Of a DNA stretch of 64,000 nt, positions 322 to 56,130 are shown piece by piece. The number at the start of each line of letters is the position of its first letter. The first letter of the stretch is position 1. Where the stretch lies: positions 7,245-71,244 of IMG/VR virus record IMGVR_UViG_3300037882_002024; one strand, 5' to 3'. Below the pieces are notes generated by a model. The model made no database searches, was not told the DNA's origin, and saw only the letters and a program-made list of their open reading frames with translations. The stretch is from a virus. A program made the translations under genes and the position numbers.

Positions 322-2322
322 TTGCGATTCGTTTTACTGTTCATGGCAGCGATGCTGGGGCTGGCGCAACCCGCCCTAGCGCAGTCTGTGGCCATTCGTC
401 CTGCGCCCAAAGATGGCTGGAAATACGCCAAGCCCGAAGGCTTCGCGGTGGCCGAAAACAACGCGCGCGCAGCCAACAACTTTCTGATCGAGCAGAGCAA
501 GCGCGACGAAGCGGCGCTCGCCAAAATCAAGGCCATTGAGCTTACAGCGCTCGACGAAACAACGCGCAAGAATGCAGCTAAGCTCCTGCGCGAGTTCGAG
601 CCACTTGCGCCCTTCATTCGGTTCGCCACATTCTACAACGCGCCCGTGGACCTGTTGGCGGAATGGCGCTCTGACTTTGTTTTTTCTCTCAACCATTTGC
701 ATCGCAAGCAGTCGCTGGTATTGCCCGTGGATGTGCCGGGCACCGAAGGCCGCTTGGTGTGGTGGGATATTCGCGACGCCGGATGGTCGATTGCCGCTGT
801 GCAGGCCGCCTTCGAGCGCGAGCCATTTTGCTTGGCGCCTCACCTACTTGGGGAAACCGCCGCGCGGATGAATCTGCTGCTGGGACTAAAGAATTTTAGT
901 CAAACGCGGCTGCATTGCCTTGGCATGGTGCGCGCCGATTGGCTCATTCGTGAGACAGGCGAGACGCTGCGCAGCACAACCTATTACGACCTGTTCTTTG
1001 CGCCGGAGCGCTTCCCTGAGCTTCCGGGCGCCAAAGGTGGCGATCCGTTTACCGTGGCGCAGGCGCTCGTGCCGGGCCTCAAGCGCCCCAAGGTCAAGCG
1101 CCTTGTGCAAGTCGAGGCCATCGAGAAAGAAACCAAGTGGGAGCCTTACAAGCACACTGGTGGCAAGCTACCGGGCTTCGGCGACAAGGAATACCCGCCC
1201 GGCATGTACGAGCTACCGCGCGAGGTTGAAAAGAAAGTTGTCAAAACGGAAGTGCGCGAGGTTGACGATACTTCACCATCCACGGTCATTGTCCCAAATG
1301 TGCCGCGCGTCTTGAAGGGACTGGGGAGTGCCAACGCCAAGGGGCAGGCTGTCGTAGACTTTCCTCAGAACGAAGGCGAATGGGAGAAGGCCTTCGGCGT
1401 CGATAAGGTCAAGGAGCTACAGAAGGCGCAGGCGCTTGACCTTGAGAACGGCGCCGTCGTGGATGGCTTCGAGGCAGGCGGAAGCATTGTTGCGCGCCAA
1501 AATCGGCTGCTGCTGCGCCTGCCTGCGGTCACAGGAAAAAAATCCAGCTATTACTGGAAGACGTTCGATGCCGACAAGACGCTCGCCGAGCAGAACTATT
1601 TTCAAACGCTTGTCTTCGACTTCAAGTTTAAGGCGGGCGAAGTCATCGCCTCGACGCCTTGTGGCGCACAGGCCTACGGACTGTTCAACAACAAAGGCGA
1701 GCGCGCCGAGTTCGTGCCCGAAGAGCTTGCTATTGATCGCACCGACAAGTACGACCATCGCGTGCGCAACCCCGGCTCGTGCATTGTGTGCCACACGTCA
1801 GGCATCAATGCGCCCGATGACCTTGTCAACAAGTTTTTCAAGCAGGGCGGCATATTCAGCGCCCTGTCGAAAGAAAAGCAAGACAAGGTGAAGACCTACT
1901 TTGTGAAGTGGGAAACGAAGCTACGCGCCGACCAAGAATCGTATGCGGAGTTCGTGAAAGACACCACGAAGCGCACGCCTGCACAGAATGCCTCGTCGTA
2001 TGCGTCGATGCGTGAGTATTACGACGATCCAGTGACGTTGGTGAAAGCGGCCGTGGAGCTAGGAACAACCACGCGCGTCGTGCGTATCTTAGCGCGCAAG
2101 AGCGCCGAAGCGCGCGTTGTGTCCCAAGCCCTCTTGCGACCGTTCCCGGTTCCTCGTACAACATGGGACGGGGAAGTTTTTCCCGTGATGATTCTTCTGA
2201 TGGATGCCTTCCGGTCGGCAGAGATACCGCCCGAAGCGCTCAACGATGAAGAAAGGCTCGCAGAGCTTATCGAGAAAGCGCTGCAAAAACTTAGTAAGCC
2301 GCAAGGCAAGGAAGAAAAATGA
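322..2322 (+). CDS. exported 666-aa protein with a single CxxCH heme c motif (uncharacterised planctomycete-type family)
   Basis: TTG start after AAGGGG RBS; Sec signal peptide ending ALA-Q; GEVIASTPCGAQAYGLFNNKGER...VRNPGSCIVCHTSG. Confidence 0.7.
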   Translation: MRFVLLFMAAMLGLAQPALAQSVAIRPAPKDGWKYAKPEGFAVAENNARAANNFLIEQSKRDEAALAKIKAIELTALDETTRKNAAKLLREFEPLAPFIRFATFYNAPVDLLAEWRSDFVFSLNHLHRKQSLVLPVDVPGTEGRLVWWDIRDAGWSIAAVQAAFEREPFCLAPHLLGETAARMNLLLGLKNFSQTRLHCLGMVRADWLIRETGETLRSTTYYDLFFAPERFPELPGAKGGDPFTVAQALVPGLKRPKVKRLVQVEAIEKETKWEPYKHTGGKLPGFGDKEYPPGMYELPREVEKKVVKTEVREVDDTSPSTVIVPNVPRVLKGLGSANAKGQAVVDFPQNEGEWEKAFGVDKVKELQKAQALDLENGAVVDGFEAGGSIVARQNRLLLRLPAVTGKKSSYYWKTFDADKTLAEQNYFQTLVFDFKFKAGEVIASTPCGAQAYGLFNNKGERAEFVPEELAIDRTDKYDHRVRNPGSCIVCHTSGINAPDDLVNKFFKQGGIFSALSKEKQDKVKTYFVKWETKLRADQESYAEFVKDTTKRTPAQNASSYASMREYYDDPVTLVKAAVELGTTTRVVRILARKSAEARVVSQALLRPFPVPRTTWDGEVFPVMILLMDAFRSAEIPPEALNDEERLAELIEKALQKLSKPQGKEEK

Positions 2323-3008
2323 TTCGAGCCAAGCTGTTTTGTTTTGTGTCCTGCGCACTGGCGTTCGGGGCATTCATGTTGCCCGGCGACGCGTTGGCGC
2401 AGAATTGCGCTTGTGGCCAGCGTGTTGTTGTGCAGCCGTCGTATAGCGCGCCCGTGACCTATGTGGCACCGGTGGTGCAGCACGCGCCCTATGTGCCGCA
2501 GCAGGCGTTACGTGAAGTCTTTTACATTCCGACGCCGCAGTTAGTGCAAGCGCGTACCGATTATTCCTTCACGGTGCGCGACGAGGATTATGAGAAAAAT
2601 CGTGACGCGCTCTTGGTCGATGCCATCGTGGGTCGTATCATGCAGCTACAGCAAAAGCAAGCGGTGCCGTTGCAGCAAAATCCGCCCGCGCCTTCTGCAA
2701 GTATCCCTTCGGGAAGCGTTCCATTGGTGGCGGCACCACAGGCGAGCAAAAAGGGCGCGCCTGTTGGCCATGTCCCATCCGCAGCCGTGACGAAAATTTT
2801 CGCCGACCGCTGCAATCGTTGCCACGGCGACAACGGCATTGTTCGCGCAGGCCTGAACCTCACGAACCCGGCGAGCCTCACTTTGGAAGATTGGGCCGCA
2901 TGTCATTCGACCTGCGCCGCTCAAGACATGCCGAAGGACGACCGCCCGCTTTCGTCTGAGGAGCTAACGGCGTTGTTCGCCGAGTACAAGGCTGCGAAGA
3001 AAAAATGA
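2319..3008 (+). CDS. exported protein with C-terminal planctomycete-type cytochrome c domain
   Basis: Signal peptide (ALA-Q); KIFADRCNRCHGDNG..AGLNL and distal DMPK Met-ligand-like motif; ATGA overlap with upstream gene. Confidence 0.75.
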   Translation: MIRAKLFCFVSCALAFGAFMLPGDALAQNCACGQRVVVQPSYSAPVTYVAPVVQHAPYVPQQALREVFYIPTPQLVQARTDYSFTVRDEDYEKNRDALLVDAIVGRIMQLQQKQAVPLQQNPPAPSASIPSGSVPLVAAPQASKKGAPVGHVPSAAVTKIFADRCNRCHGDNGIVRAGLNLTNPASLTLEDWAACHSTCAAQDMPKDDRPLSSEELTALFAEYKAAKKK

Positions 3009-3046
3009 GCCGCAAGGTGTGGCTCAAAGGTAGTTGAGGGAATAGC

Positions 3047-3619
3047 ATGAAACACGTTCTTTTGGCGCTCATGGTTACCGCGCTGGCGGTCATGGGCAGC
3101 AGCAAAGCCCATGCGGGGGACTGCGCCACGGGTGCGCTGGTGGCTCCGCAGATTCAGTACCAGCCGATCCAGACGATCCAGTTGCAGCAAGTGCAGCCGG
3201 TCGTTCATCACGTGCAGACTGTCCAGCCCGTGATCGTGCAACAACAAGTGTCGCCGCAGCAATACTTCCGCGCGCGCACCTACGCACCGGCCCAGCCGGT
3301 TATCTTGCAGCAACAAGCGCCCGTCGTCCACCAGCGGCAGTTCGCGCAAGTGCAGCAACAACAATTTTACCAACAAGCGCAACCGATCTATGCGCAACCT
3401 CAGCGCCAAGTTTTCGGCCAACGCCAAGCCTTCCGGCAGCCGCAGCGCCAAGCGTTGGGGGCAGGCAATAACGTGCTAGGTGGCTTGCTCAGCCCCCAAG
3501 GCATCTTGACTATCGGCGGCGCCGCTCTTGGCGCGTCTCTGTCTGGCGGCTTGGGAGCGCCCGCAGGGGCAGCGATTGGCGCGGGCCTTGGCCAGATCAT
3601 CGGCGGCTTGGGCCGGTAA
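3047..3619 (+). CDS. exported Gln-rich low-complexity protein with C-terminal glycine-zipper-like segment
   Basis: GAGGG RBS; signal peptide (AHA-G); Q/V/P-rich core; GGAALGASLSGGLGAPAGAAIGAGLG tail. Confidence 0.65.
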   Translation: MKHVLLALMVTALAVMGSSKAHAGDCATGALVAPQIQYQPIQTIQLQQVQPVVHHVQTVQPVIVQQQVSPQQYFRARTYAPAQPVILQQQAPVVHQRQFAQVQQQQFYQQAQPIYAQPQRQVFGQRQAFRQPQRQALGAGNNVLGGLLSPQGILTIGGAALGASLSGGLGAPAGAAIGAGLGQIIGGLGR

Positions 3620-5128: not shown

Positions 5129-5159
5129 ACTTCTGCCCCACAAACTACCGAGGCAAGAC

Positions 5160-7133: not shown

Positions 7134-8285
7134 ATGAAGCCGCCTTATTCTATTCCGTCTATGAGCGAAATTAAAGCCATTCCGTGGAATGGCTTTAATG
7201 TTGCCTCTACATTTAGCGGCTGTGGTGGATCGTGCCTTGGGTATCGCATGGCTGGCTTTAGGGTTGTGTGGGCAAATGAGTTCGTTCCTATCGCTCAGGA
7301 GTCGTACAGGGCTAATTCCACAACAGATTGTTTTTTGGATTGCCGAGATATTAAGCTAGTAAGGCCAGATGATATTTTGCGCCAGACAGGAATTAAAGTC
7401 GGAGAGCTTGATTTGTTTGATGGATCGCCGCCATGTCAAGCGTTCAGCAACGCTGGAGCGCGCGAGAAAGGGTGGGGCAGGAAGAAGAAGTACGAGCATG
7501 GCGCCCAGCAGTGTAACGAGCAGCTTTTTGACGAATATATCCGCTTGCTTCGCGGCTTGCAGCCGAAAGTTTTTGTTGCAGAAAATGTTGCAGGTCTTGT
7601 GCGCGGGACAGCGAAAGGGTTTTTTCTTGACATCCTCAAGAAGCTGAAAGATTCTGGCTATGTAGTATCTTGCAAAGTTCTTGATGCGCAGTGGTTAGGG
7701 GTTCCGCAAACTCGCCAGCGAGTTATTTTTGTTGGTGTCCGTTGCGACTTGGGTCTTTCGCCAAAGCACCCAGCTCCATTATCGTATCAGTACACAATTC
7801 GCGACGCATTGCCGTGGATTGTTAAATCTACATATGACACCAAGGGAATCTTTAGGGTCAAAGAGACCGCAAATAGTCCACACCCGTGTATTACGTGCTC
7901 TAATATGTATCATTTTGAAATAGAGGCAGAAACAGACATTTCCCGCTTTGCAATTGGCAAGGAGTGGGATAAAATTAAAGCTGGCGAGGCGAGCGAAAAA
8001 TACTTCTCTCTCATAAAGGCGCATCCAGATCGTCCGTCGCCGTGTATTTTGGCAAGCCACGGACAGCCCGGAATTGCCAGTGTCGTTCATCCGACAGAGA
8101 AGAGAAAGTTTACCATTGCCGAAGTAAAGCAAATATGTTCTTTCCCTCAAGACTTTAAGTTAGCTGGTAGTTATGCGCAGCAATGGGAGCGCCTCGGAAA
8201 TAGTGTTCCGCCATTGATGGCGTTTCGAGTTGCGGAAGTTGTCCGCGATGAGATACTGGCAAAGGCAGGAAAGCATGCCAATTAA
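7134..8285 (+). CDS. DNA (cytosine-5)-methyltransferase
   Basis: Motif I FSGCGG, IV DGSPPCQAFS, VI AENV, VIII QTRQRVIFVG, X LGNSVPP. Confidence 0.95.
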   Translation: MKPPYSIPSMSEIKAIPWNGFNVASTFSGCGGSCLGYRMAGFRVVWANEFVPIAQESYRANSTTDCFLDCRDIKLVRPDDILRQTGIKVGELDLFDGSPPCQAFSNAGAREKGWGRKKKYEHGAQQCNEQLFDEYIRLLRGLQPKVFVAENVAGLVRGTAKGFFLDILKKLKDSGYVVSCKVLDAQWLGVPQTRQRVIFVGVRCDLGLSPKHPAPLSYQYTIRDALPWIVKSTYDTKGIFRVKETANSPHPCITCSNMYHFEIEAETDISRFAIGKEWDKIKAGEASEKYFSLIKAHPDRPSPCILASHGQPGIASVVHPTEKRKFTIAEVKQICSFPQDFKLAGSYAQQWERLGNSVPPLMAFRVAEVVRDEILAKAGKHAN

Positions 8286-21214: not shown

Positions 21215-22063
21215 ATGGCAGCCCACGATATTTTGGACGCGCCCGATGTCGAGAAGGAAGTGCCGGAAGGCATCATCGACGACGGCGTATGCAACGAGTA
21301 TCACGAGAACGGCAAGCGTTGTCGGCGGCGTTGCATGCGTGGGGAGTTCTACTGTAAGACTCATTCTAATGTGCCGCGCAGGCAGCAAAAAACGTATATG
21401 TACTCGAAGCACTTGCCGACGCACTTGCGTAACGCGTACAAGCGCATTGCGGAGTCGGGCGACCTGCTAACGCATCAGCACGATATTGCACTGATGCAAG
21501 TGCGCTGCAATGAGCTAGCAGGGCGCTTGGCCAGTGGGGAGAGTAACGACCGCTGGCACAGTCTGCGCGAACAGTTCGAGCGCTTCCGCAATGCGAATCG
21601 GATGATGGGTTCCCCGGACGAGGCCACGCGCCAGCAGGCAGCGGTAGAGCAGCGTGAGGCTCTGCAGGCCGTTGACCAAATTATTTCGTCAGGCGTCGCT
21701 GATGAAGCTAATTGGGATGACCTGCAAAACGCGATTAGCTTCAAGAGTGAATTGCAAGCCAAGGAGTGGAAGCGCCTGCGTGAGATGCAAGCCGTGGCCA
21801 CTGCTGAGCAGGTGCGCACCCTCGTGTTCGCTATCACCACCAGCGTGCTGCGCAACGTCCCCGACGCGAATCAGCGACGCGCTATCGTGACCGATATTAT
21901 GACGCTGCGCGTGTTCGACGTGTCGATTGCGTCACCGTTTCCCGAAGGCATGACTAACGATGGCCGACAAGGTAAGCCGCCAGCGGACAATCAACGAGAT
22001 TCTCAACCCATCGGAGACGCCCGACCCGCTGGGCAGCCCGATGATGGCGCAGCTACTCAATGA
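21215..22063 (+). CDS. putative terminase small subunit
   Basis: GGGAG RBS; N-terminal Cys/His cluster (C...CRRRC...YCKTH) then helical body; immediately upstream of and overlapping TerL. Confidence 0.55.
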   Translation: MAAHDILDAPDVEKEVPEGIIDDGVCNEYHENGKRCRRRCMRGEFYCKTHSNVPRRQQKTYMYSKHLPTHLRNAYKRIAESGDLLTHQHDIALMQVRCNELAGRLASGESNDRWHSLREQFERFRNANRMMGSPDEATRQQAAVEQREALQAVDQIISSGVADEANWDDLQNAISFKSELQAKEWKRLREMQAVATAEQVRTLVFAITTSVLRNVPDANQRRAIVTDIMTLRVFDVSIASPFPEGMTNDGRQGKPPADNQRDSQPIGDARPAGQPDDGAATQ

Positions 22064-24968
22064 ATTTTGCTCGATGATCGAGCCGCCCAGCGAAGAGCTT
22101 CTGACGCTGCAGAACAAGTACGAGAACAGTTTCTACGAATTTACCAAGGCCATGTGGCCGATCATCGAGCCTGCGGCCCCGTGGGTCGATGGCTATATCG
22201 TGCAGTGCGAGTGTGAGCATTGGGAAGCCGTCCTACGCGGCGACATCAAGAAGCTCATCATCAATCAACCTCCACGGCATGGGAAGCCCGTGGACGAACG
22301 GGCACTCGTCCTGATGGCCAGCGGCCAAAGGAAGATGCTACGAGATGTTGTTGTTGGCGATGCCGTTATCACTCACAAGGGGCGCGCCAAGAAAGTAACA
22401 GCAGTCTATGAGCAAGGTCTGCTGCCTGTGCTGCGCATCATGACGAACGCCGGGCGGGTAGTGCGCGCTGCATATGACCACCCTTTCCTAACGGCAGATG
22501 GATGGAAGCGCGCCGATCAGCTTCGACTTGGTGATTCTCTGGCCGTGGTGTCGATGTACGGCGGCTTTGATAAGTCATCGGACTATATGACCGATTACGA
22601 GTTCCGCTTGGCTGGCTATTTCATCGGCGACGGTGCCACTAAAATATATAAGTCATCGAGCGCTTGTAGCATCACATGCAAAGACGCTGTCGAAGGCGCT
22701 GACCTTATGGCCTGCGCAGCGGCAATGGGCTTTGCGGTCAACCACACGCCGCGCAACTATCGCTATAACTTTTCAGACGGCGCGCGTAGTTGGTTGCATG
22801 CTGTAGGGATTGCTGGCCACGGCTCGTACACCAAGCGCGTTCCCGAATTTGTTTTCCGTGGCAGCAATGACCAAGTAGCGCAGTTTGTTGGGGCCTACTT
22901 TGCGTGTGATGGTTATGTAAGCGCCAAGGGGCGCGGCCGCGAAAAGAGGATGCGAGAGGATTTAGAGTTTAGCTTTTCGAGTGTCAGTCGTGCGCTTCTT
23001 GAGGACGTGCAGCACTTGCTTGCGCGTCTTGGGATCATGATGCGGCTGCGTGCTAAGCGCCAAAAGATGGCCGATGGATCGAGCTACGACAGTTTTTTGT
23101 TGGTTGCCACCAGCCAAGAAGAGGTTGCTAAATTCGCTGATCGTATTCCCGTTCGGCACACAAAAGCTACGCGGCTTGCCAAAGAGAGGTTTCAGCGACA
23201 GCGCTTTAATGAGGCCTTGCACGCAGACAGCATCGTAGTAATTGAGCCGGACGGCGAAGCCGTTTGTCGGTGCCTGTCAGTGGACGACGATCAAACGTTT
23301 ACGGCAAGCGACCTCGTTGTTCACAACAGCATACGCGCAGCGGTAGCGTTCTGCACGTGGACATGGACGCAGAAGCCGCACTACCGCTTCATTTACGCAA
23401 GCTACTCGGACATGCTGGTAAAGCGGGACAGCATCCGCAGCCGCGACGTTATCCTGCATGAGTGGTATCGCAATTTTTGGGGCAACAAATTCCGGCTGAA
23501 ATACGACCGCAACACGCAGCACGTATTCGAGAATACGCAACGAGGCTTCCGCTTTGCCACCACGCCCGGCGGCGTGGCGACAGGGGAAGGCGCCGAGATT
23601 ATCATTGGCGATGACCTTGTGAGCGCCGAGGGGGCACGCAGCAAAGCCGAGAACGAACTCGTGTACCGCTTCTGGACACAGACGCTCGGTAGCCGCGTGA
23701 ACGATCCATCGAACGTGGCGCGCGTGCTTACCATGCAGCGCTTTAACCGTGCTGACATCGCGGGGCGCATGATCGCCGAGGAGCATGGCTACGAAACGCT
23801 CGTGCTTCCCTTCGAGTGCGAGCGTAAGCGCTACTTCCTGCCGACCAAAGAGAATGCTGTTGACAGGCCCCGTGATGCCATCGTGCCGACGAAGTTGCAG
23901 CTAGCCGACCCGGCCTTGATGGATAACCGCAAGGAAGGCGAGCTATTGTGGCCTGAGCGATTTTCGCCTACGGCGGCGAAAGAGTTCAAGCTGAGTATTG
24001 GGGCAGGCGTTCCGGGACAGCTACAGCAGCGTCCTAGCGCTGAAGGCGGCTCGATTGTGCGCTCGGAGCGCTTCCAGCTATGCTACGAGACGTGGATCGA
24101 CGGTGCGCTGCACTTCGTTCTAGGCGAGGCCACCGAAGACACGCGCCCGCGCGTCGTGAAGGCGTCCGATTGCTTTTGGTTTCAGTGCGCTGATACTGCG
24201 CAGACAGCTACGACGAGTAATGACCCGACTGCTATCGGCACGTTCTGCCGCACGCCGTCCGGGGAGTTGATTGTTTACCACATCTTCTGCGAGCATCTGG
24301 AGTATCCGGACCAATGGCCCGCGATGTGTGAGCTACGCGTGGGACGCGCTGCATGGGACCGCTACAACCAGCGCTGGGCAGTGCGCGGGGCTGCGTTCCC
24401 GTGGCCGTGTCCTTTATCGTGGCAGGGCGTCGAGCCGAAGTCTACCGGGGAAAGCCTTATCCAGACAGCCCGGCGCGTCGGGATTGCCTTGCACCGCTTG
24501 AATGTGTACGCAGGCGACAAGCAGCAGCGTGGCGCGCCATTGGTGATGATGTATGAGCAAGGCATGGTATACCACTTGGCGTCCGGCCCGTGGCGCGTGG
24601 ACATGGAAGAACAGATAAGCGAGTTCCCCAATGCAGCCCACGACGACATCTTCGACATCGTGAGCTACGCGGCGATGGAGTGCCAAACGATGGCGCTTAC
24701 CATCTACAAAGGCGACTTGATTTACAACGCTAGCGTTGGCGAAACAATGGCACGCAATGCCGAAGCGAGCGTACCGGACGTGTTTCGCGACCGTGGAAAT
24801 GAGAGGCGTGATCGGTTGGCCGAGCCGGTCAAAGAGGCTGTGGGCGAAGTCGATGAGATTGCAGCTACACTTGCGGCGCTCGAAGCAGGCTACCAGCGTC
24901 AGCAAGTACAGGCCAACGAGCAGACATCGCCGCTTGACGACATCTTGCGTAGGCTGAATGGTGGCTAA
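21960..24968 (+). CDS. terL: terminase large subunit, intein-containing
   Basis: Walker A NQPPRHGK|S split by intein; YASYS, Walker B IIIGDD, VLTMQR, QQRP, nuclease CADTA and FPNAAHDDIFD; start may be ATG 22041. Confidence 0.95.
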   Translation: MADKVSRQRTINEILNPSETPDPLGSPMMAQLLNEFCSMIEPPSEELLTLQNKYENSFYEFTKAMWPIIEPAAPWVDGYIVQCECEHWEAVLRGDIKKLIINQPPRHGKPVDERALVLMASGQRKMLRDVVVGDAVITHKGRAKKVTAVYEQGLLPVLRIMTNAGRVVRAAYDHPFLTADGWKRADQLRLGDSLAVVSMYGGFDKSSDYMTDYEFRLAGYFIGDGATKIYKSSSACSITCKDAVEGADLMACAAAMGFAVNHTPRNYRYNFSDGARSWLHAVGIAGHGSYTKRVPEFVFRGSNDQVAQFVGAYFACDGYVSAKGRGREKRMREDLEFSFSSVSRALLEDVQHLLARLGIMMRLRAKRQKMADGSSYDSFLLVATSQEEVAKFADRIPVRHTKATRLAKERFQRQRFNEALHADSIVVIEPDGEAVCRCLSVDDDQTFTASDLVVHNSIRAAVAFCTWTWTQKPHYRFIYASYSDMLVKRDSIRSRDVILHEWYRNFWGNKFRLKYDRNTQHVFENTQRGFRFATTPGGVATGEGAEIIIGDDLVSAEGARSKAENELVYRFWTQTLGSRVNDPSNVARVLTMQRFNRADIAGRMIAEEHGYETLVLPFECERKRYFLPTKENAVDRPRDAIVPTKLQLADPALMDNRKEGELLWPERFSPTAAKEFKLSIGAGVPGQLQQRPSAEGGSIVRSERFQLCYETWIDGALHFVLGEATEDTRPRVVKASDCFWFQCADTAQTATTSNDPTAIGTFCRTPSGELIVYHIFCEHLEYPDQWPAMCELRVGRAAWDRYNQRWAVRGAAFPWPCPLSWQGVEPKSTGESLIQTARRVGIALHRLNVYAGDKQQRGAPLVMMYEQGMVYHLASGPWRVDMEEQISEFPNAAHDDIFDIVSYAAMECQTMALTIYKGDLIYNASVGETMARNAEASVPDVFRDRGNERRDRLAEPVKEAVGEVDEIAATLAALEAGYQRQQVQANEQTSPLDDILRRLNGG
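22287..23327 (+). mobile_element. 347-aa intein with LAGLIDADG homing endonuclease (class-3-like, Pro start)
   Basis: Begins PVDERALV right after the Walker A Lys; block B AAYDHPF; LAGYFIGDG and FVGAYFACDG; block F CRCLSV; ends VVHN followed by Ser. Confidence 0.92.
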
Positions 24969-48401: not shown

Positions 48402-48632
48402 ATGAAGAACATTTTTGAGCAAAGTCACGATGAGCTTATGATGACAGTGCGCAGGTTGCGGCGCATGTTGCACCACATCGGCGAGCTTGTTGAGCCTGTG
48501 GAGAGCTTCGAGCGCGCCAGTGGCGCCGCGCTCTGCCCGAACTGCGGCCTTGAGTTGCGCGACCACCCGGAGCAGCGTGGCGCTACTGGCGTTACGGTTA
48601 TCTCTTGCGACGGCAGACGCTGGAAGTTGTAA
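48402..48632 (+). CDS. small Zn-ribbon hypothetical protein
   Basis: GAGG RBS; CPNCG ... SCDG. Confidence 0.55.
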   Translation: MKNIFEQSHDELMMTVRRLRRMLHHIGELVEPVESFERASGAALCPNCGLELRDHPEQRGATGVTVISCDGRRWKL

Positions 48633-48639
48633 GGCCGCG

Positions 48640-48704
48640 TAGACAGCGCGCAGGCCCCCCGCTAAAATCAAGTCGTCGCACCGGCAGCGACTAAAATAAT
48701 TTAG
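48640..48704 (+). promoter_or_regulatory. portal-operon promoter with downstream box
   Basis: TAGACA(48640)-17-TAAAAT(48663); box 48691 just before the RBS. Confidence 0.65.
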
Positions 48705-48714
48705 TGGGGAAGCG

Positions 48715-51700
48715 ATGAGCAACGCATTGAAGCAGGCGCTAGGCGCCAAATCATTTGGGCTGCGGGCGCCTGACATCGGCTCGACGCCGATGCTGTTCGG
48801 CAGCGCCCGAGGCGCCGGGCTGGGACTGGGGACAAGCCCCAGCAATACGCTGACGCATCACAACGAACAGTATCGGCACTATGCGGGCTGGGTATACGCT
48901 TCGATTCGGCCTATTGCGCAGTCGGTGGCACGGCAGGCGGTGCGCGTCGCCCGTGTGCCCAAACGCCGAAATGCACGCACCGCGCCCATGACAGCCAAGA
49001 GCCACATTTTTACCTCGCAGGGGCCAGTATCCAAAGATCGCGCAGCGCAAGAATTGTGGCTGCGGCGCACCTTGCCGGGGGCGCTCAAGTCGCACGCCGA
49101 GACAGCCGAGATTCTCGAATGGCACCCGATCCTCGACATCATCAACAAGCCTAACCCCATCATGGCGCGCTGGGCATTGTTCCTCACCACCGTGGCCAGC
49201 ATCGACCTTACAGGCAAGGCCTACTGGTGGATAAAGCAAGGTGACGAAGACGGCGAGCCTCTGCAAATCTGGCCGATGCCAAGCCATTGGGTTGCGCCAG
49301 TTCACACGAAGCAAAAGCTCTTCGAGTCGTGGGATATTCGGCCCGATGGCGCCAGCAAGCCCATCAACGTTCCACGGAAACAAGTCGTGTGCTTCTACAC
49401 GCCCGACCCTGCAAACCCGTTCAACGCTTATGCCACGCTGCAAGCGCAGGCCCGCGCCGTCATCAGCGACGAGGCGATTGCCGAGGCGCAGCGCCAATCA
49501 TTTCAGCGCGGCATCTTCCCCGGCTTGGCTGTGGTGATGGGCAGGCTTCCCGATGCGATGGGCAACGCAGGCGCAGGTGAGCGCCCCTTGCTCACCAACG
49601 ATCAGCGCCAGCAAATTACCATCGGCATCAAGCAGATGTTTCAGGGCGTGTACAACTACGACGAGCCGTTGATTTTGGATCAGTTGATCCAAGACATCAA
49701 GCGCATCACGCAGTCGCCGCGCGAGATGGACTTCATGCAAAGCGGCCTTGCCACCAAAGAAAAAATCACACAGGCCTTTGGCACCAACCCCATCGTGATG
49801 GGGCAAGTAGAGAACGCATCGCGTAACAGCGCTGCGACGGCTCAGCAAATCTTTTACGACCTAGCGGTAAACCCGAAGATCGCGTTGATGAGCGAGTTCC
49901 TGTCGATGTGGTTCAGCCCGGAGTTTAGCACGCCTGACGAGGAATTGCTGCTTTACATCGAAGAGGCGCGTTCAAGCGATCCCGATTCCGACCGGGAAGA
50001 CTATCGGCTACTGAAAGACCACTTCGCCATTGATCGCAACGAAATGCGCGCAGGCCTGCGCGGCTTGCCGCCAATTGACAGCGGCGAAATGATCGCGGTG
50101 CCTGCGGGCCTGACATGGATGGATATTGCGGATGTGCAAGACACCAACATGGCGCCGATGCTGCTTGACGCTGAGGCTGCGCCTGTGGCTAGCGAAGACC
50201 CAAAGCCGACCGACGAAGAAAAGCCCAAAGAGAATCAGCAGCAGGACGAGCAGGTGCCCGACGCAGGCGCGGCGGCGCTCAACGGCGCGCAAATTGCTAG
50301 CCTGCTTTTGGTCATCAAAAAGATCACGTCCGGCGAGCTTACGCGCGAAGTGGCGATGGCCATTCTTGGGGCCTCGTTCCCAACAATGGACGAGGCTGTT
50401 TTAGCCAAGATCATCGAAGGCGTTGTTGTCAAGCCGCCTGCGCCCACTGTCGATGAAGTGCGCAGCGTCGTTGCGCAGGCTCTACAGGCCCGCGAAGACG
50501 AAGAGCTAACAGACCGCATTGGCACCAAGGCCCCGGTGCCGAACATCGCGCAAAACGAAGCGTATGATTGCGGCGCTGCTGCAGCGCGTGCCGTGGCTGA
50601 GCATTACGAAATGGTCCACGAATGGACGTCACAGGATTTTGTGATGGCACTCAACACTTCGGACGAGGCAGGCACCGAGCCGCGCCACATCGTTGACCTT
50701 TTCAAGCACAACGGTTGCGACGTGCAGTACGGCAAGCATTGGACGCTAGGCAGGCTCTTCGACAGCCTGCGGCGCGGTGTTCCGGTGGTGTGCTGCATTC
50801 AAGGCCTGACCTTTGGCGACGACGACGACCGCGCCAAACAGCAGAACGGCCATTGGGTTGTTGTCGATGGGGCTGCGGACAATCGCATCTTCTACATGGA
50901 CCCGTCCACAGGGGCGCATGAGCAAGCCGATTGGCAAACATGGAAAGACAATTGGAAGGATCGAGGCGTTGACGGGACGCCTTACGAGCGATACGGGATC
51001 GCCGTCGGCCCGCCGCCCAAACCCGTTGTTGACGAGCAGAGCAACACGATGAACGCGCGCGCTTGCGTGCTGCGCCTCAAGTCGCATGGCTACTATTGCC
51101 GCGCCAAGTCGCTGGGCCTCGCAGACAGGATCGCCGAAATCAAGGGATTCTTCAAGGCGCAACATCAAACCATTTACACAGCGCTAATGACGTACTATCG
51201 ACGCCAGCGCGCCGCCATCGAAGCGAAGCTCGATGACTGGTCGAAGAGCGTCAGTTTTGATGGCATTGCGCCGATGACTGGCGACCTGCTAGCCACGTGG
51301 CCTTACGACGGCCAGAAGGCCACCGACCAAGAAGATAGCGCCATGCAGCTAGTAGACAGCCTGCTCCCGTTGCATGCGACGACAGCGCGGCTCGTTGGAG
51401 CGGTGCGCGACGCTATCTTGCAGGTGGCACTCAATGCGGCAGGCAAGGAATACAGCGACCTTGAGCCGATGGCCGACGAGGAAAAAGCCAAGCGCAAGCC
51501 AAAGGTGGACCGCACGCCTTTGCCAAAACCGATTCGAGAAGTATGCCACGATTATCTCGGCCGCGTAGTCGCCGAACCGTATTGGGAAGACATGACGTAT
51601 CGGGTGCGCCTGCAGATGGCTCGTTCGATCCGACGAGGCCTCGCGCATGGTGAAGATCGCGCCGCCATTGCGCTGCGCGTGCTGGCGGTCGTGAGCGAAG

Positions 51701-51999
51701 GAAACGACGCCGTGCGTGCCGACCTCATCGCCACCACTGAGGCCAACGGCGCGTACAACCTTGGGCAACACGCCACACGGGCGCACCTGATTGCGCAGGG
51801 CGCCAACATCACTAAGCTATGGCAGGTTGTCGAAGATGGCCGCGAGCGGGCCAGCCATGACGAAGCGAACGGGCAGGAAGTGAAGCACAAAAACAAATTC
51901 CGCGTCGGCAAAGAATGGTGCTTGTATCCGGGGGCGCAGAATCTTTCGCCGGGAGAGCGCTGTCGGTGCCGCTGCACAGCGATCAGCATTCCGCACTAA
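48715..51999 (+). CDS. portal protein fused to a C39-like cysteine peptidase and a MuF (SPP1 gp7-like) head morphogenesis domain
   Basis: HK97-type portal (WVYASIRPIAQSVA, HPILDIINKPNP, GKAYWW, AFGTNPIV); peptidase Q..YDC619..GH713W..MD729P; MuF IATTEAN..KLW..DGRER.SH..YPG..CRCRC. Confidence 0.88.
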   Translation: MSNALKQALGAKSFGLRAPDIGSTPMLFGSARGAGLGLGTSPSNTLTHHNEQYRHYAGWVYASIRPIAQSVARQAVRVARVPKRRNARTAPMTAKSHIFTSQGPVSKDRAAQELWLRRTLPGALKSHAETAEILEWHPILDIINKPNPIMARWALFLTTVASIDLTGKAYWWIKQGDEDGEPLQIWPMPSHWVAPVHTKQKLFESWDIRPDGASKPINVPRKQVVCFYTPDPANPFNAYATLQAQARAVISDEAIAEAQRQSFQRGIFPGLAVVMGRLPDAMGNAGAGERPLLTNDQRQQITIGIKQMFQGVYNYDEPLILDQLIQDIKRITQSPREMDFMQSGLATKEKITQAFGTNPIVMGQVENASRNSAATAQQIFYDLAVNPKIALMSEFLSMWFSPEFSTPDEELLLYIEEARSSDPDSDREDYRLLKDHFAIDRNEMRAGLRGLPPIDSGEMIAVPAGLTWMDIADVQDTNMAPMLLDAEAAPVASEDPKPTDEEKPKENQQQDEQVPDAGAAALNGAQIASLLLVIKKITSGELTREVAMAILGASFPTMDEAVLAKIIEGVVVKPPAPTVDEVRSVVAQALQAREDEELTDRIGTKAPVPNIAQNEAYDCGAAAARAVAEHYEMVHEWTSQDFVMALNTSDEAGTEPRHIVDLFKHNGCDVQYGKHWTLGRLFDSLRRGVPVVCCIQGLTFGDDDDRAKQQNGHWVVVDGAADNRIFYMDPSTGAHEQADWQTWKDNWKDRGVDGTPYERYGIAVGPPPKPVVDEQSNTMNARACVLRLKSHGYYCRAKSLGLADRIAEIKGFFKAQHQTIYTALMTYYRRQRAAIEAKLDDWSKSVSFDGIAPMTGDLLATWPYDGQKATDQEDSAMQLVDSLLPLHATTARLVGAVRDAILQVALNAAGKEYSDLEPMADEEKAKRKPKVDRTPLPKPIREVCHDYLGRVVAEPYWEDMTYRVRLQMARSIRRGLAHGEDRAAIALRVLAVVSEGNDAVRADLIATTEANGAYNLGQHATRAHLIAQGANITKLWQVVEDGRERASHDEANGQEVKHKNKFRVGKEWCLYPGAQNLSPGERCRCRCTAISIPH

Positions 52000-52122
52000 G
52001 GGGCCTCATGGACATCATGCTATTTTTTTTGGTAATGAACAATCTGCACTGGATCGTAGCCGCCATCTTTGTGGCGGCTGCCGCCTACATCCTGCGCGTC
52101 TGGCTGTGGCTACGGAGTAACA

Positions 52123-52365
52123 ATGGGCGATGTTAGCCGGTTTGAAACGAACCGTAAGGGCACGATGGCCGTGGAGTGGCTGCAGTTGCACCTAGCCGAA
52201 AAGCAGGGCACAGACTTCACGGGGCGTATCGTGGTAGAACTCATTTACCACGATGGCTACCCAACGAAAGCGCGCTTCGTTGATGAAACCACCGTCTGCG
52301 ATATGAGCGACGAGGAGCGCACAGCGTACATCGAAAAAAACAAAAAAATACCGCCCGCCACTTGA
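52123..52365 (+). CDS. hypothetical protein
   Basis: GGAG RBS; ATG 52123. Confidence 0.55.
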   Translation: MGDVSRFETNRKGTMAVEWLQLHLAEKQGTDFTGRIVVELIYHDGYPTKARFVDETTVCDMSDEERTAYIEKNKKIPPAT

Positions 52366-52412
52366 CACGGAGCAAAACGCCGTGTAGGGTGAAGCTAGCT
52401 AAAATTTTTTAG
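52362..52412 (+). promoter_or_regulatory. prohead-protease promoter with box at the start site
   Basis: TTGACA(52362)-17-TAGGGT; box 52399. Confidence 0.75.
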
Positions 52413-52460
52413 TCGGCTAACGGATAACCACCTACAAGCCGACGCACCTGCTCGAAACGA

Positions 52461-54509
52461 GTGGGCGCGTCGGCTTTCTGCATTTATGGAGCGCTGCGCG
52501 TGGACGAAATTCTCGCATTGGTCAACAAGCGCGGCATGGTCCGCAATTCCATCTCCACGGCCTTACCCTACCTTCGCACCGTAGACTCGGCCATCAGTGG
52601 GGCACGTGCAGGCACGTTGACGCCGCGCGACCTGTCGTTATACTCCGGGGCCTCGTGGCAGGCGGCGATGAAGCACGCCGCCGAAACGCTGGTCTATCGC
52701 AACGAAGGCATGCGCTATCTCAAAGCCGCATCCAACGAAGCTGATGCTAAGAGCGGCCTGACGCCTGTGGCCACGTTCGAGGCGGTCATCACGTCGATCA
52801 AGCAAGATCGCGATAACGATGTCTTGCACCCGGAAGGCGCCGAGGTCGATCCCTACGCACCGCTGCTGTGGCAGCACAACCCGCTGGAGCCTATCGGCAA
52901 GCTCACCAAGGTGCTGAGCAAGAGCAAGGACAATGTTACGGCAGCGCTGGCCATCGCCGACATCCCGCTCGGTCGTGATGCCGCTTATTTGGTGGAGTTC
53001 GGATCGCTGCGCATTTCGCATGGCTTCCGCGCGCACGAGTTCAAGCCGATCAAATCTGGCAGCGACGTCGTTGGCTTCGAGGTCTTGAAGTACGACGTGA
53101 TGGAAGTGTCGCTGGTATCGGTGCCCAGCAATACCGACGCTGTCATCACGGCGTTCGCGCGTGGCAAGCTCACCAGCCCGGTGTGCAAAAGCTGGGGGCG
53201 CAGCCTGTATGCGTCGCGACCGATTGTCGTGCGTGGCGGCTTCGGTGGCTTCAAGAAGGCTGCAGCGAACATGGCCAAGGTGAAGGCCAAGCCGAAGACA
53301 GGGCGCAAGCTGGACACGAAGGCCAGCGACGACTTTGAGGAGCAACTAGCCGCCGCCGCATCGACCATCGTACACAGCAATGACTACGGCTATTGCTTCT
53401 ACGCGCAGCCCGATTCGGCGAAGGAAGAATACCAAGTCTTCTGGACTGCTGCTGACTCGGACGGCGATGGCCAAACGGCTGACGGGACGCCGTTCACCAC
53501 GATGGACGATGTCAAGTCGATCCTGAGCAACGTCCCCGGTGTCGCCAGCGTGACCATCGAATCCGAAGCAACGCCGCCCAAGGGCGAAGGCTGGCGCATG
53601 GTCTACCCGGAGATGCGGGATTGGGCCGAAGACAGCGCCGACGACGAGCAAGGCAACGAGGACAGCGAAGGCAGTGATGAAAGCGCCGAGGGGCAAGAAA
53701 GCGAAGAGGGTAAAGGCAAGAAGCCAAAGTCGAAACACGCGCTCGCGGGCGGCAAAGACAGCCCCGTGCAAGGCTCGTTCGAGGCCATCGCATCAGCGCT
53801 GTCGCGCATGGTGTTCGAGTACCTGAATGCCAACGGCGTGCCCGTGGACGAGAAGAAAAATTGGGTGTACGTGGCGGCGACCTACGCGGATAGCGTCGTG
53901 GTGGCGGTCGGCGAAAACGGCACAGGCCGAATGACGTATTACCAGATCGCCTACACGATGAACGGCGACGACCCGGTGTTGAGCGGCAAGCCCATCGCGG
54001 TCGAACTCAACACGGTGCTGCAGCGCGTCGAAGACGAAGCCAACGAAGAGCAGCCACAAGAGGCTAGCGGCGAAACGGACCCGGCGCAAGCGCACGCGCA
54101 CCCGCGCCTCAAGATGAGTTGGACGATTGCCAAAAATCCTGCGCGCCAAGGACTCAAGGGCAAGTTGACGCGCAAGGATTCGAGCAAGCTCAAAGAAGCT
54201 CAAGAGCATCTCGAAGAGGCCATCGGATCGGGCAAGATGCCGAGTACCATCAAGACGCTGGTGCAGCGCGGCGCCGACCTTGTGGCCGATGTCATGAAGT
54301 CGGATGGCTCGGAAGCCACCGATGAAGATACAGGCTCGATGGAAGGCCTTAGCGGCGAGTCGCGCGCCATCATGGCGCAGGCTCGCAAGGCAGCCGCCGA
54401 GAAAGCGCCCTACGCGCTGGCCCTCGCACTGGAAGCGCTCGCGGCGCAAATCTGCAAAGAGGCCAAAGAAGCCGACGAAAGCCAGTTGGTTCAGTTGCTG
54501 ACTGCGTAA
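52461..54509 (+). CDS. HK97-family prohead protease with long acidic C-terminal extension
   Basis: DRDNDVL, PLLWQHN..PIGK, ISHGF, EVSLVSVPSN; start may be ATG 52537. Confidence 0.85.
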   Translation: MGASAFCIYGALRVDEILALVNKRGMVRNSISTALPYLRTVDSAISGARAGTLTPRDLSLYSGASWQAAMKHAAETLVYRNEGMRYLKAASNEADAKSGLTPVATFEAVITSIKQDRDNDVLHPEGAEVDPYAPLLWQHNPLEPIGKLTKVLSKSKDNVTAALAIADIPLGRDAAYLVEFGSLRISHGFRAHEFKPIKSGSDVVGFEVLKYDVMEVSLVSVPSNTDAVITAFARGKLTSPVCKSWGRSLYASRPIVVRGGFGGFKKAAANMAKVKAKPKTGRKLDTKASDDFEEQLAAAASTIVHSNDYGYCFYAQPDSAKEEYQVFWTAADSDGDGQTADGTPFTTMDDVKSILSNVPGVASVTIESEATPPKGEGWRMVYPEMRDWAEDSADDEQGNEDSEGSDESAEGQESEEGKGKKPKSKHALAGGKDSPVQGSFEAIASALSRMVFEYLNANGVPVDEKKNWVYVAATYADSVVVAVGENGTGRMTYYQIAYTMNGDDPVLSGKPIAVELNTVLQRVEDEANEEQPQEASGETDPAQAHAHPRLKMSWTIAKNPARQGLKGKLTRKDSSKLKEAQEHLEEAIGSGKMPSTIKTLVQRGADLVADVMKSDGSEATDEDTGSMEGLSGESRAIMAQARKAAAEKAPYALALALEALAAQICKEAKEADESQLVQLLTA

Positions 54510-54561: not shown

Positions 54562-56130
54562 ATGAAGATCACGATTGCGCTCAAGGCGTTCTTGCTCGGC
54601 AAGGGGCTGGTCAGCGCGAATGCACCGGAAACCGATGTTCGCAGCGCGGCGCTCAAGGCGCTCAGCGATGGCAAGATGACCACGGCGGAGCTTAACGACC
54701 TGTGTCGCGAAGAAAACGGCGCAGGCACACTCGACGCGCTGGTAGCCAAGGCGCTCAACGAGAAGCTGGCGGCGCTCAATCTCGCGCCAGCAGAGACGAA
54801 GAACGCCACCGAGAAAGCCTTCGACGCCGCCATGTCGGGCTTCAAGACCAAAGACAGCACGACAGCGTCGGCCTTCGGCGGCGTGGCCTTCGGGATCAAT
54901 CCCGAAGTGAAGAGCATCGGCGATATGTACTCGAAGAGTCGCTCCGAGTTGTTCTTGCCGGAGCGCACGCGCAGCGGCATGAAGCGCGTCGATGCGGGGC
55001 GCCCGGCCATGTTCAACGGCGAGCGCCTGTACGGCACGTCGCAGATGGGCAAGGCGGTTGCGCAGGCCTACTTCAAATGGCAGATCGCTTGCACGAGCCA
55101 GCCGAATGATATTCCGCGCGGCCTGCGCATGACCGATCACGACAAAGAAATTTTGAAGTTTGCGCTGCACGAGTGCGAATGGACAGGCCTCATCAATCCG
55201 CACCCCGAAGACGGCGGCGGGATTGCGGTCAAGCGGCGCAAGCTCCAAGAATTTGAAGTGAAGGCGCTGCTCGACGATGCCACCAGCGGCGGTATCGAAA
55301 TCGCACCCATCGAGTTCGACGACGTGTTGGTGACGACGCCGGTGTTGTTTGGCGAACTCTTCCCGTTGGTCAACGTAGTGGACGTGGCGCGGGGGCGGCG
55401 CATGAAGGGCGGCACCGTGGGCAACCCCACCTTCGGGGCTACGGGCGAAGGCACGGGCATCACCGCCTTCGATACGACAGCCTTCGTCGCGTCGTTCGAC
55501 ACGACGATTTACGTGGCCAGCGCGTCGATGGAAATCGGGATGGATTTTGAGGAAGATTCGCCCACGAATATCGGCGGCATCATCATCGACAAGTTCGGCG
55601 AAAAGGCAATGGAGTGGTACGACCGCGTCATCGCCGTTGGCAACGGGACCACGGAGCCGCAAGGTATCTCACTGGCTACGGGTACGACCGTTGTGCCCTC
55701 AGACTTTTCCACAAGTGGCCCGCCAACCGTTAGCGACTACGAAGGCTTGATGTTCGGCGTCAACAAAGCGTACCGCAATACCAAGGGCAGCCGCAACGTG
55801 TACATTGCCAACGAAGTGTCGTACCGCAACGCGCGCGCCATTCCGGTCGGCCCCGCCGACGAGCGCCGCGTCTTCGGCATGACGCATGGCGACTACCAGA
55901 TTCTAGACACGCCGTACAAAGTCCAGAATGACATCACGAACAGCACGATCATGTACGCCAACCTTGGTTACTACCGGCTATACCGACGCCTCGGTGTCAC
56001 GGTGCGCAACGAGACGGGCGGCAACTACTTGGCCAGCCGCAACCAGCGCCTCATCGTGGTGCGCCTGCGCACTGGTGGCAAGTTGGAGCAAGGCGGGGCG
56101 GCAGCCATCATGACCGACGCCAAGTCGTAA
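54562..56130 (+). CDS. major capsid protein (HK97 fold) with N-terminal scaffold/delta domain
   Basis: SGGIEIAPIEF, P-domain region, AVGNGTTEPQGI, GDYQILDTPY, YANLGYYRLYRR; follows portal and protease. Confidence 0.88.
   Translation: MKITIALKAFLLGKGLVSANAPETDVRSAALKALSDGKMTTAELNDLCREENGAGTLDALVAKALNEKLAALNLAPAETKNATEKAFDAAMSGFKTKDSTTASAFGGVAFGINPEVKSIGDMYSKSRSELFLPERTRSGMKRVDAGRPAMFNGERLYGTSQMGKAVAQAYFKWQIACTSQPNDIPRGLRMTDHDKEILKFALHECEWTGLINPHPEDGGGIAVKRRKLQEFEVKALLDDATSGGIEIAPIEFDDVLVTTPVLFGELFPLVNVVDVARGRRMKGGTVGNPTFGATGEGTGITAFDTTAFVASFDTTIYVASASMEIGMDFEEDSPTNIGGIIIDKFGEKAMEWYDRVIAVGNGTTEPQGISLATGTTVVPSDFSTSGPPTVSDYEGLMFGVNKAYRNTKGSRNVYIANEVSYRNARAIPVGPADERRVFGMTHGDYQILDTPYKVQNDITNSTIMYANLGYYRLYRRLGVTVRNETGGNYLASRNQRLIVVRLRTGGKLEQGGAAAIMTDAKS

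Follow-up and report, generated by a model that had tools for sequence, protein, structure and literature searches.

Enzymes riding on the portal or MuF proteins of phage heads are a known theme. In the packaging modules of prophages, the papain-like peptidase Tox-PL1 is fused to MuF, and a processing role in assembly or release has been proposed for it (Zhang et al. 2012, PMC3482391). MuF and portal proteins also occur fused to effector domains, for which packaging in the head is predicted, and embedded metallopeptidases have been proposed to release the domains of such polyvalent proteins (PMC5512222; PMC9503650). The MuF toxins described by Jamet et al. 2017 (PMC5576092) combine a C-terminal cargo with an immunity gene, and peptidase cargo is mentioned there as a class. 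Here we describe P0001, a protein of 1094 residues encoded on the plus strand at positions 48715-51999 of a 64,000-nucleotide stretch of the IMG/VR virus record IMGVR_UViG_3300037882_002024 (positions 7,245 to 71,244 of that record; hereafter the window), in which a portal, a C39-like cysteine peptidase and a MuF/gp7-type head protein are joined in one polypeptide. P0001 extends the known theme, and the clade to which its peptidase belongs is large, undescribed and uncultured.

Comparison with described systems

P0001 resembles the Tox-PL1-MuF proteins in linking a cysteine peptidase of clan CA to MuF; the Tox-PL1-MuF genes lie beside portal, terminase and capsid genes (PMC3482391). The two peptidases are nevertheless of different papain-like clades: P0001 has a C39-like Q-x5-C...H...D arrangement, whereas the Tox-PL1 signature is NC-H-DxQ, and no Tox-PL1-type match to P0001 was found in Pfam at E ≤ 1. 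Unlike Tox-PL1, the peptidase of P0001 has a portal as a second fusion partner, with the portal on its N-terminal side and MuF on its C-terminal side. With the polyvalent proteins P0001 shares the presence of enzymatic domains on MuF or portal, and the relatives of its C39 domain have ART, NUDIX, 2H, InPase, GNAT and ART-PolyVal partners in common with them. The hub peptidase of the polyvalent proteins (Iyer et al. 2017, 2022) is, however, a zincin-like metallopeptidase, and the terms 'papain' and 'C39' are absent from the texts of PMC5512222 and PMC9503650. P0001 itself consists of carrier, peptidase and carrier with no other effector domain, whereas relatives with the same C39 clade show true polyvalent architectures. 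The likeness to the MuF polymorphic toxins (PMC5576092) consists in a MuF that is encoded with a portal and an extra enzymatic domain; in contrast to these toxins, the peptidase of P0001 is N-terminal to MuF, MuF is terminal, and no specific immunity gene was found downstream. The term C39 is absent from the text of PMC5576092 and from six text-format supplements, and 'peptidase' is absent from those six.

The same fold and the same Q/C/H/D arrangement are found in the C39 leader peptidases of ABC exporters (ComA PEP, PCAT1, LahT150), with profile E-values of 3e-13 to 7e-12 and Foldseek template modelling (TM) scores of 0.61-0.64 normalised to the query. The exporters and P0001 alike have the peptidase joined covalently to a translocation channel, but the channel of P0001 is the DNA portal; P0001 is without an ABC transporter, and a double-glycine leader substrate was not found. 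The lysins PeiR and PeiW of methanogen prophages are likewise phage-encoded, and PeiR is the best PDB match by both profile and fold. The Pei enzymes, however, carry wall-binding repeats and act on archaeal pseudomurein, and identity is only 17-18%; no binding repeats are found in P0001 (Pfam), and its predicted context lies inside the head. Full-text literature searches retrieved no paper naming a portal-C39 fusion.

Domain organization of P0001

The gene and its segments are as follows.

48715..51999, plus strand: P0001, portal, C39-like peptidase and MuF in a single open reading frame (ORF) (Pfam, PHROGs)
48715..48846, plus strand: glycine-rich N-terminal segment, residues 1-44, predicted disordered
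48847..50124, plus strand: HK97/SPP1-type portal domain, residues ~45-470 (Pfam, phrog_2662, high predicted local distance difference test score (pLDDT) at residues 46-470)
50134..50277, plus strand: acidic proline-rich linker, residues 474-521, predicted disordered, pLDDT <50, variable in the alignment
50278..50511, plus strand: helical 'LNGAQ' module of four helices, residues 522-599 (alignment, model; no Pfam family)
50530..51009, plus strand: C39-like papain-fold cysteine peptidase, residues 606-765 (Pfam, conservation, PDB profiles, AlphaFold2 (AF2), Foldseek)
51022..51099, plus strand: C39-MuF junction, residues 770-795, predicted disordered
51100..51996, plus strand: full-length MuF/gp7-type head protein, residues ~796-1094 (Pfam, PHROG, model)

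An earlier, sequence-only reading of this DNA had recognized a portal, a C39 peptidase and a MuF domain in one uninterrupted frame of 1094 residues. The ORF scan of 48715-51999(+) bears this out, giving a single open frame of 1094 codons with no frame break, and all Pfam matches lie above the curated cut-offs. Phage_portal (PF04860) matches residues 132-446 with an E-value of 1e-31 (110.8 bits, cut-off 39.1) and Phage_Mu_F (PF04233) matches residues 970-1090 with an E-value of 5e-12 (46.9 bits, cut-off 29.6). The peptidase is matched by Peptidase_C39_2 (PF13529) at residues 608-730 (8e-9; 36.6 bits, cut-off 24) and, marginally, by Peptidase_C39 (PF03412) at residues 610-734 (6e-5; 23.3 bits, cut-off 22). 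The PHROGs agree for the portal (phrog_2662 at residues 50-516, 5e-56) and for head morphogenesis (phrog_2468 at the MuF part, 1e-22).

The AlphaFold model of full-length P0001, obtained with a 51-row alignment, has a mean pLDDT of 77.9 and places disorder at residues 1-45, the portal at 46-470, the disordered acidic linker at 474-521, the four-helix module at 524-599, the C39 domain at 603-766, a second disordered stretch at 770-795 and MuF at 796-1094. The acidic linker that had been noticed in the sequence is real, at residues ~474-521 and predicted to be disordered, and the range given for the peptidase (nt ~50530-51010) corresponds to residues 606-765, the same range as that of the family hidden Markov model (HMM) built here. 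From the model, the acidic linker is a candidate protease-accessible site and the C39-MuF junction at residues 770-795 a candidate cleavage region. This junction starts with the tail motif that terminates the relatives consisting of portal and C39 only. MuF closes the protein at residue 1094, with no extra C-terminal cargo domain. The glycine-rich N-terminus is typical of the portal lineage of P0001 and is present in relatives without C39 as well. The helical module, of ~75 residues, opens with a conserved LNGAQ(I/V) motif; because it is placed N-terminal of C39 in P0001, P0002, P0004, P0005 and P0006 and C-terminal of it in P0102, it is a separate mobile unit.

Three homologues from independent metagenomic samples and assemblers (P0002, P0003 and P0004, 57-41% identity) show the same continuous portal-C39-MuF order; the closest, P0002, has 57% identity over 96% coverage. 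That three independent homologues share this uninterrupted order argues against a misassembly or a missed stop, and such comparisons make an assembly artefact very unlikely.

Structure and conservation of the peptidase domain

The papain-like fold presumed from the sequence is recovered by structure prediction. When the C39 domain alone was folded with 121 relatives, AF2 returned a pLDDT of 92.7, and Foldseek assigned a papain/C39 fold with a probability of 1.00 to PeiR, LahT150, ComA PEP, PCAT1 and staphopain. The best match is PeiR, followed by LahT150, ComA PEP and PCAT1 and then by staphopain and AvrRpt2. The family profile searched against the PDB gave E-values of 1.9e-14 for PeiR, 3.4e-13 for ComA PEP and 7e-12 for PCAT1.

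Residues Q613, C619, H713 and D729 align with the catalytic positions of ComA PEP, and the motifs QxxxxDCG, GH and DP are matched. Among the eight closest relatives Q613, C619 and H713 are invariant. The 121-sequence family alignment has C619, G620, G712, H713 and W747 invariant, while Q613, D729, P730, D749 and Q696 are conserved in ≥90% of the sequences. The sequence-only reading had described the four catalytic residues as intact; all four are indeed present in P0001, but D729 is not strictly invariant, being replaced by Cys in the close relatives P0007 and P0009. The conservation pattern of the catalytic residues in the alignment is that of an active enzyme.

Distribution of the C39-like domain

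A phmmer search with residues 596-772 against 1.84 billion representative proteins retrieved 1238 relatives of the C39 domain at E ≤ 1e-3, 289 of them at E ≤ 1e-10. Architectures were counted for the best 150 hits together with the hits of the first search, using portal, MuF and C39 HMMs built iteratively from the hits.

portal-C39: 30 proteins
C39-MuF: 23 proteins
MuF-C39: 13 proteins
portal-C39-MuF: 8 proteins
portal-MuF-C39: 1 protein
C39 alone or with other domains: 80 proteins, ~50 of them stand-alone, <320 residues

Roughly half of the 150 best clusters have the C39-like domain fused to a portal or to MuF, with all orders represented. The arrangement of P0001, which the sequence-only reading did not know from elsewhere, is not singular, eight of the proteins being portal-C39-MuF. 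That order comes from at least two distant portal lineages; the portals of P0035, P0059, P0096 and P0067 are only distantly related to that of P0001. The portals that carry C39 belong to three Pfam families: PF04860, PF05136 (lambda-type) and PF06074 (Mu-type). Judged from their sequences, the C39-like domains form a large, uncharacterised and catalytically intact clade in uncultured phages, on portal and MuF carriers. The only relative from a prokaryote genome is a 29%-identical portal in a metagenome-assembled genome. In the 617-residue portal of mycobacteriophage Jabs, the C-terminal residues 476-617 are unresolved (bioRxiv 10.64898/2026.07.24.740622); this region can be likened, by size only, to the C39 add-on of portal-C39 proteins of ~620 residues such as P0052.

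Pfam partners were tallied for all 91 long relatives. They comprise ADP-ribosyltransferases, NUDIX, 2H/Acb1-like, InPase, PI3/PI4-kinase-like, Tpt1, GNAT and ART-PolyVal domains, in arrangements such as X-C39-ART (P0017, P0018), C39-NUDIX and 2H-C39. This set corresponds to the repertoire of head-packaged 'polyvalent' effectors (PMC5512222, PMC9503650). None of the 91 has a cell-wall-binding, peptidoglycan-binding, LysM, SH3, lysozyme, glycosidase, amidase or transglycosylase partner, and an ABC transporter domain was found neither in P0001 nor in any of the 91 relatives (Pfam). On a FastTree tree of the C39 domains at least 47 architecture changes are needed, compared with 80-90 for shuffled labels, which indicates a domain that is mobile but clustered. 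The C39 domain of P0001 groups with the C39 domains of its own portal clade, and the C-terminal C39 of P0008 has a separate origin.

Relatives of the P0001 phage are present in other samples. Public runs contain contig fragments of only 150-310 bases on the region, none of them reaching across a junction. Two freshwater metagenomes (X2, X4) contain fragments identical to the window, and related fragments, ~90-97% identical to conserved parts of the gene and falling within window positions 48600-52500, occur in X1 (a 2013 RNA-seq library) and X3.

Close relatives of P0001

P0001 belongs to a phage head module: a small ORF, an S78 prohead protease gene and the major capsid gene lie directly downstream. 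Among the close relatives, P0005 and P0009 (40-43% identity) consist of portal and C39 only and stop directly behind the peptidase; the 16 kb around each gene contain small-ORF, S78 protease and capsid genes as in the window, and no MuF. P0011, P0012, L005 and L006 are portal-MuF proteins without the peptidase. From these arrangements the peptidase is seen to be accessory and dispensable in close relatives, and MuF can do without it, either functioning unreleased or being freed by a different protease. The sequence-only reading had suggested that the peptidase cleaves the polyprotein to release MuF. As a conserved function this is excluded, because there are portal-C39 relatives without MuF within 16 kb and portal-MuF relatives without C39.

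Further variation is seen at the C-terminal ends. P0002 has an additional domain of ~270 residues after MuF (residues 1135-1406), for which there was no PDB match and only weak Atlas leads (weak GNAT-like). P0010, which has no C39, shows a weak match to an anthrax-lethal-factor-like metallopeptidase after MuF (residues 1132-1209, E 0.0046, below cut-off). In another IMG/VR relative (L004:137-3165) the portal (137-2146) and MuF (2011-3165) overlap in different frames, an overlap that may reflect an error of sequencing that shifted the frame, the presence of two genes, or programmed frameshifting.

Proposed role of the peptidase

The C-terminus of a phage portal, the crown, faces the capsid interior, and the MuF protein gp7 of phage SPP1 is reportedly ejected at infection. 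According to SPP1 studies, which are cited in PMC5576092, one or two copies of gp7 are bound to the portal within the head. Since the peptidase of P0001 is sited between the C-terminus of the portal and a portal-bound internal MuF protein, it would be located inside the capsid. The reading that we favour, tentatively and with a probability of roughly 45%, is that of an accessory capsid-internal peptidase whose substrates are the flexible linkers in proteins packaged in the head, among them its own linkers; the resulting pieces would leave with the DNA. The peptidase would be carried in the capsid in up to twelve copies and would cut the disordered linkers at residues 474-521 and 770-795, either in cis or between neighbouring subunits. 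The cuts would detach C39 and MuF pieces from the portal ring, and these pieces would exit with the DNA; in the relatives, the attached effector domains would be freed in the same way. After entry, the peptidase may also cut host proteins. It is an accessory module and distinct from the enzyme of head maturation; the S78 prohead protease has its own gene next door. The analysis establishes the fusion, the fold, the conservation of the catalytic residues, the architectures across the family and the dispensability in close relatives; capsid-internal location, activity, cleavage and ejection are steps that we infer, and self-processing of P0001 is plausible.

Limited proteolysis of head-packaged proteins is suggested by the many effector partners of the injected type, the frequent internal position of the domain and the disordered linkers on both of its sides. 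C39 is often internal, as in the X-C39-ART proteins P0017 and P0018, and N-terminal to MuF; such a position fits a releasing peptidase and not a terminal cargo. Also counted in favour are the additional domain behind MuF in P0002 and the weak metallopeptidase match of P0010, which stands in place of C39. Precedents are the processing role proposed for Tox-PL1 on MuF (PMC3482391) and the domain release proposed for metallopeptidases embedded in polyvalent proteins (PMC5512222).

Several observations weigh against this reading. Neither a cleavage site nor a conserved double-glycine-type motif was found at the junctions, and no junction or neighbour motif is specific to the C39-bearing relatives. 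Thirty clusters are portal-C39 proteins with nothing else to release, and ~50 members are stand-alone proteins of ~190 residues. Close relatives have a portal-MuF fusion and no peptidase; as such fusions exist, either MuF needs no release or the S78 protease releases it. Finally, the domain was not found in cultured phages: tblastn of 50,697 GenBank phage records gave three uncultured huge-phage records only. In LR756511, from an uncultured huge phage, the domain is a stand-alone ORF of 196 residues. The glycine-rich N-terminus of the portal (residues 25-45) was considered as a double-glycine leader and rejected, the same stretch being present in P0010-P0012, which are without C39.

The foremost alternative, in our view unlikely but to be taken seriously, is that C39 is an injected effector protease: a cargo, freed by the S78 protease or ejected on MuF, that cuts specific host cytoplasmic proteins, targets in defence or takeover, and has no role in self-processing. 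Its presence and position vary among close relatives (portal-C39, portal-C39-MuF, portal-MuF-C39 and portal-MuF), and the architecture switches on the domain tree (at least 47, against 80-90 when shuffled) are typical of an exchangeable cargo. By sequence and fold the domain is linked to the AvrRpt2 and staphopain families and to the papain-like toxins found in CdiA and PAAR systems; injected enzymes are known to be carried by MuF and portal proteins (PMC5576092, PMC5512222, PMC9503650), and the S78 gene adjoins. However, C39 is N-terminal to MuF in 23 of the 36 two-domain MuF fusions, whereas the cargo of described MuF toxins is C-terminal (PMC5576092). Moreover, neither an inhibitor gene nor an immunity gene was found to go with the domain, the small downstream ORF standing also beside a portal-MuF gene without C39, and twelve covalently tethered copies per virion would be unusual for an effector.

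It is rather improbable that the domain is an entry-associated cell-wall peptidase that cuts peptide stems or cross-links of the wall after expulsion through the tail. A precedent for the route is T7 gp16, which is expelled through the tail and whose transglycosylase domain acts on the host wall. The best PDB match is the prophage pseudomurein endoisopeptidase PeiR (Foldseek E 1e-7, besides the profile E-value of 1.9e-14), and the best predicted viral structures in BFVD are lysins, LysA, tape-measure and phi29 gp13-type proteins; fusions of lysozyme domains to portal and to capsid proteins have also been recorded (PMC5512222). On the other hand, the ComA and PCAT leader peptidases score almost as well as PeiR, and the top ten viral structural matches have identities of 12-17% with root mean square deviations of 4.5-8.8 Å. 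Most stand-alone members lack a signal peptide, and the partners of the 91 long relatives, none of them related to the wall, act on nucleotides, NAD and RNA in the cytoplasm. The same tally gives no support to an earlier suggestion that the protease cuts the proteinaceous surface of a planctomycete host, wall-binding and glycosidase partners being absent and the partners being cytoplasm-acting effector domains. Among the ORFs tested, none matched a planctomycete-specific family.

We assign a low probability to a permanently tethered assembly factor, in which twelve C39 domains would stay on the portal crown and be active in the procapsid alone, for instance in trimming scaffold or core proteins close to the portal, or would merely bind, as an inactive module. 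The commonest architecture is portal-C39 with short linkers (30-60 residues), and within the lineage of P0001 the C39 tree follows the portal clade, pointing to a structural partnership that is stable. Yet close relatives build heads without C39 (portal-MuF only), a dedicated S78 protease is present, and the same domain occurs on MuF and on effector polyproteins. A module that only binds would not be expected to keep its catalytic residues so strictly conserved. A slim chance is given to a PCAT-like mechanism, in which the portal-tethered C39 at the inner mouth of the channel clips an anchoring or targeting peptide off MuF and effectors while they are threaded out; if true, proteolysis would be coupled to protein ejection, in a new translocation-coupled step of infection. 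We give almost no weight to the possibility that assembly or sequencing joined separate portal, peptidase and MuF genes, because, although public runs offer only short fragments of the region, none of which spans a junction, the same continuous order is shared by P0002, P0003 and P0004, portal-C39 fusions are present in dozens of clusters, and the P0001 ORF has a uniform base composition with no frame break.

To our knowledge, the loading of injected proteins into the head and their release are understood in a few model phages only; in T4, the capsid-targeting sequence is cut by gp21. Being tied to portal and MuF in every order, and sharing polypeptides with ART, NUDIX, 2H and InPase domains, the C39 clade is a candidate for an enzyme that generally releases or processes the effectors packaged in the heads of uncultured phages. 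The metallopeptidase of the polyvalent proteins would then have a counterpart as hub peptidase, with P0001 as a simple three-part example of a portal/MuF-linked C39.

Neighbouring genes and start signals

The IMG/VR record is linear, 87.7 kb long and estimated to be 85% complete, with nearly all genes on one strand. Other features of the window are the following.

21960-24968: large terminase, 1002 residues, 24 kb upstream of the portal and not adjoining it
48640-48668, plus strand: promoter-like TAGACA-17-TAAAAT (consensus match only)
within 48640..48714, plus strand: GGGGAAG, resembling a ribosome binding site (RBS), directly before the ATG (consensus match only)
52120..52365, plus strand: small ORF of 81 residues between the portal and protease genes, conserved, with the motif FET.RK...EWL.LQ
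52461..54509, plus strand: prohead serine protease, 682 residues, Peptidase_S78 at residues 133-231
54562..56130, plus strand: HK97-fold major capsid protein, 522 residues

The S78 enzyme is the canonical protease of head maturation and a second candidate for making the cuts. The 81-residue ORF is kept in L003, L011 and L013 and, more weakly, in L005, and has no PHROG or other family match. It was considered as an inhibitor or immunity protein of C39 and rejected, since a homologue also follows the portal-MuF gene of L005, which is without C39. In the capsid protein, ~250 residues precede the HK97-fold part, and the sizes of the S78 protein and of the capsid protein recur in L011 and L013. The terminase has an N-terminal extension of ~450 residues that weakly matches a helicase PHROG.

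An internal restart giving a separate MuF product was considered and rejected, as the recurrent phage RBS motif CCGAGGCAAG is absent inside the P0001 ORF. Elsewhere in the window this motif (≤1 mismatch) is frequent, with 17 sites compared with 6.7 expected; 14 of the 17 are on the plus strand, and examples are found at positions 5148, 34755, 36597, 40234, 41746, 42848, 45129 and 45949.

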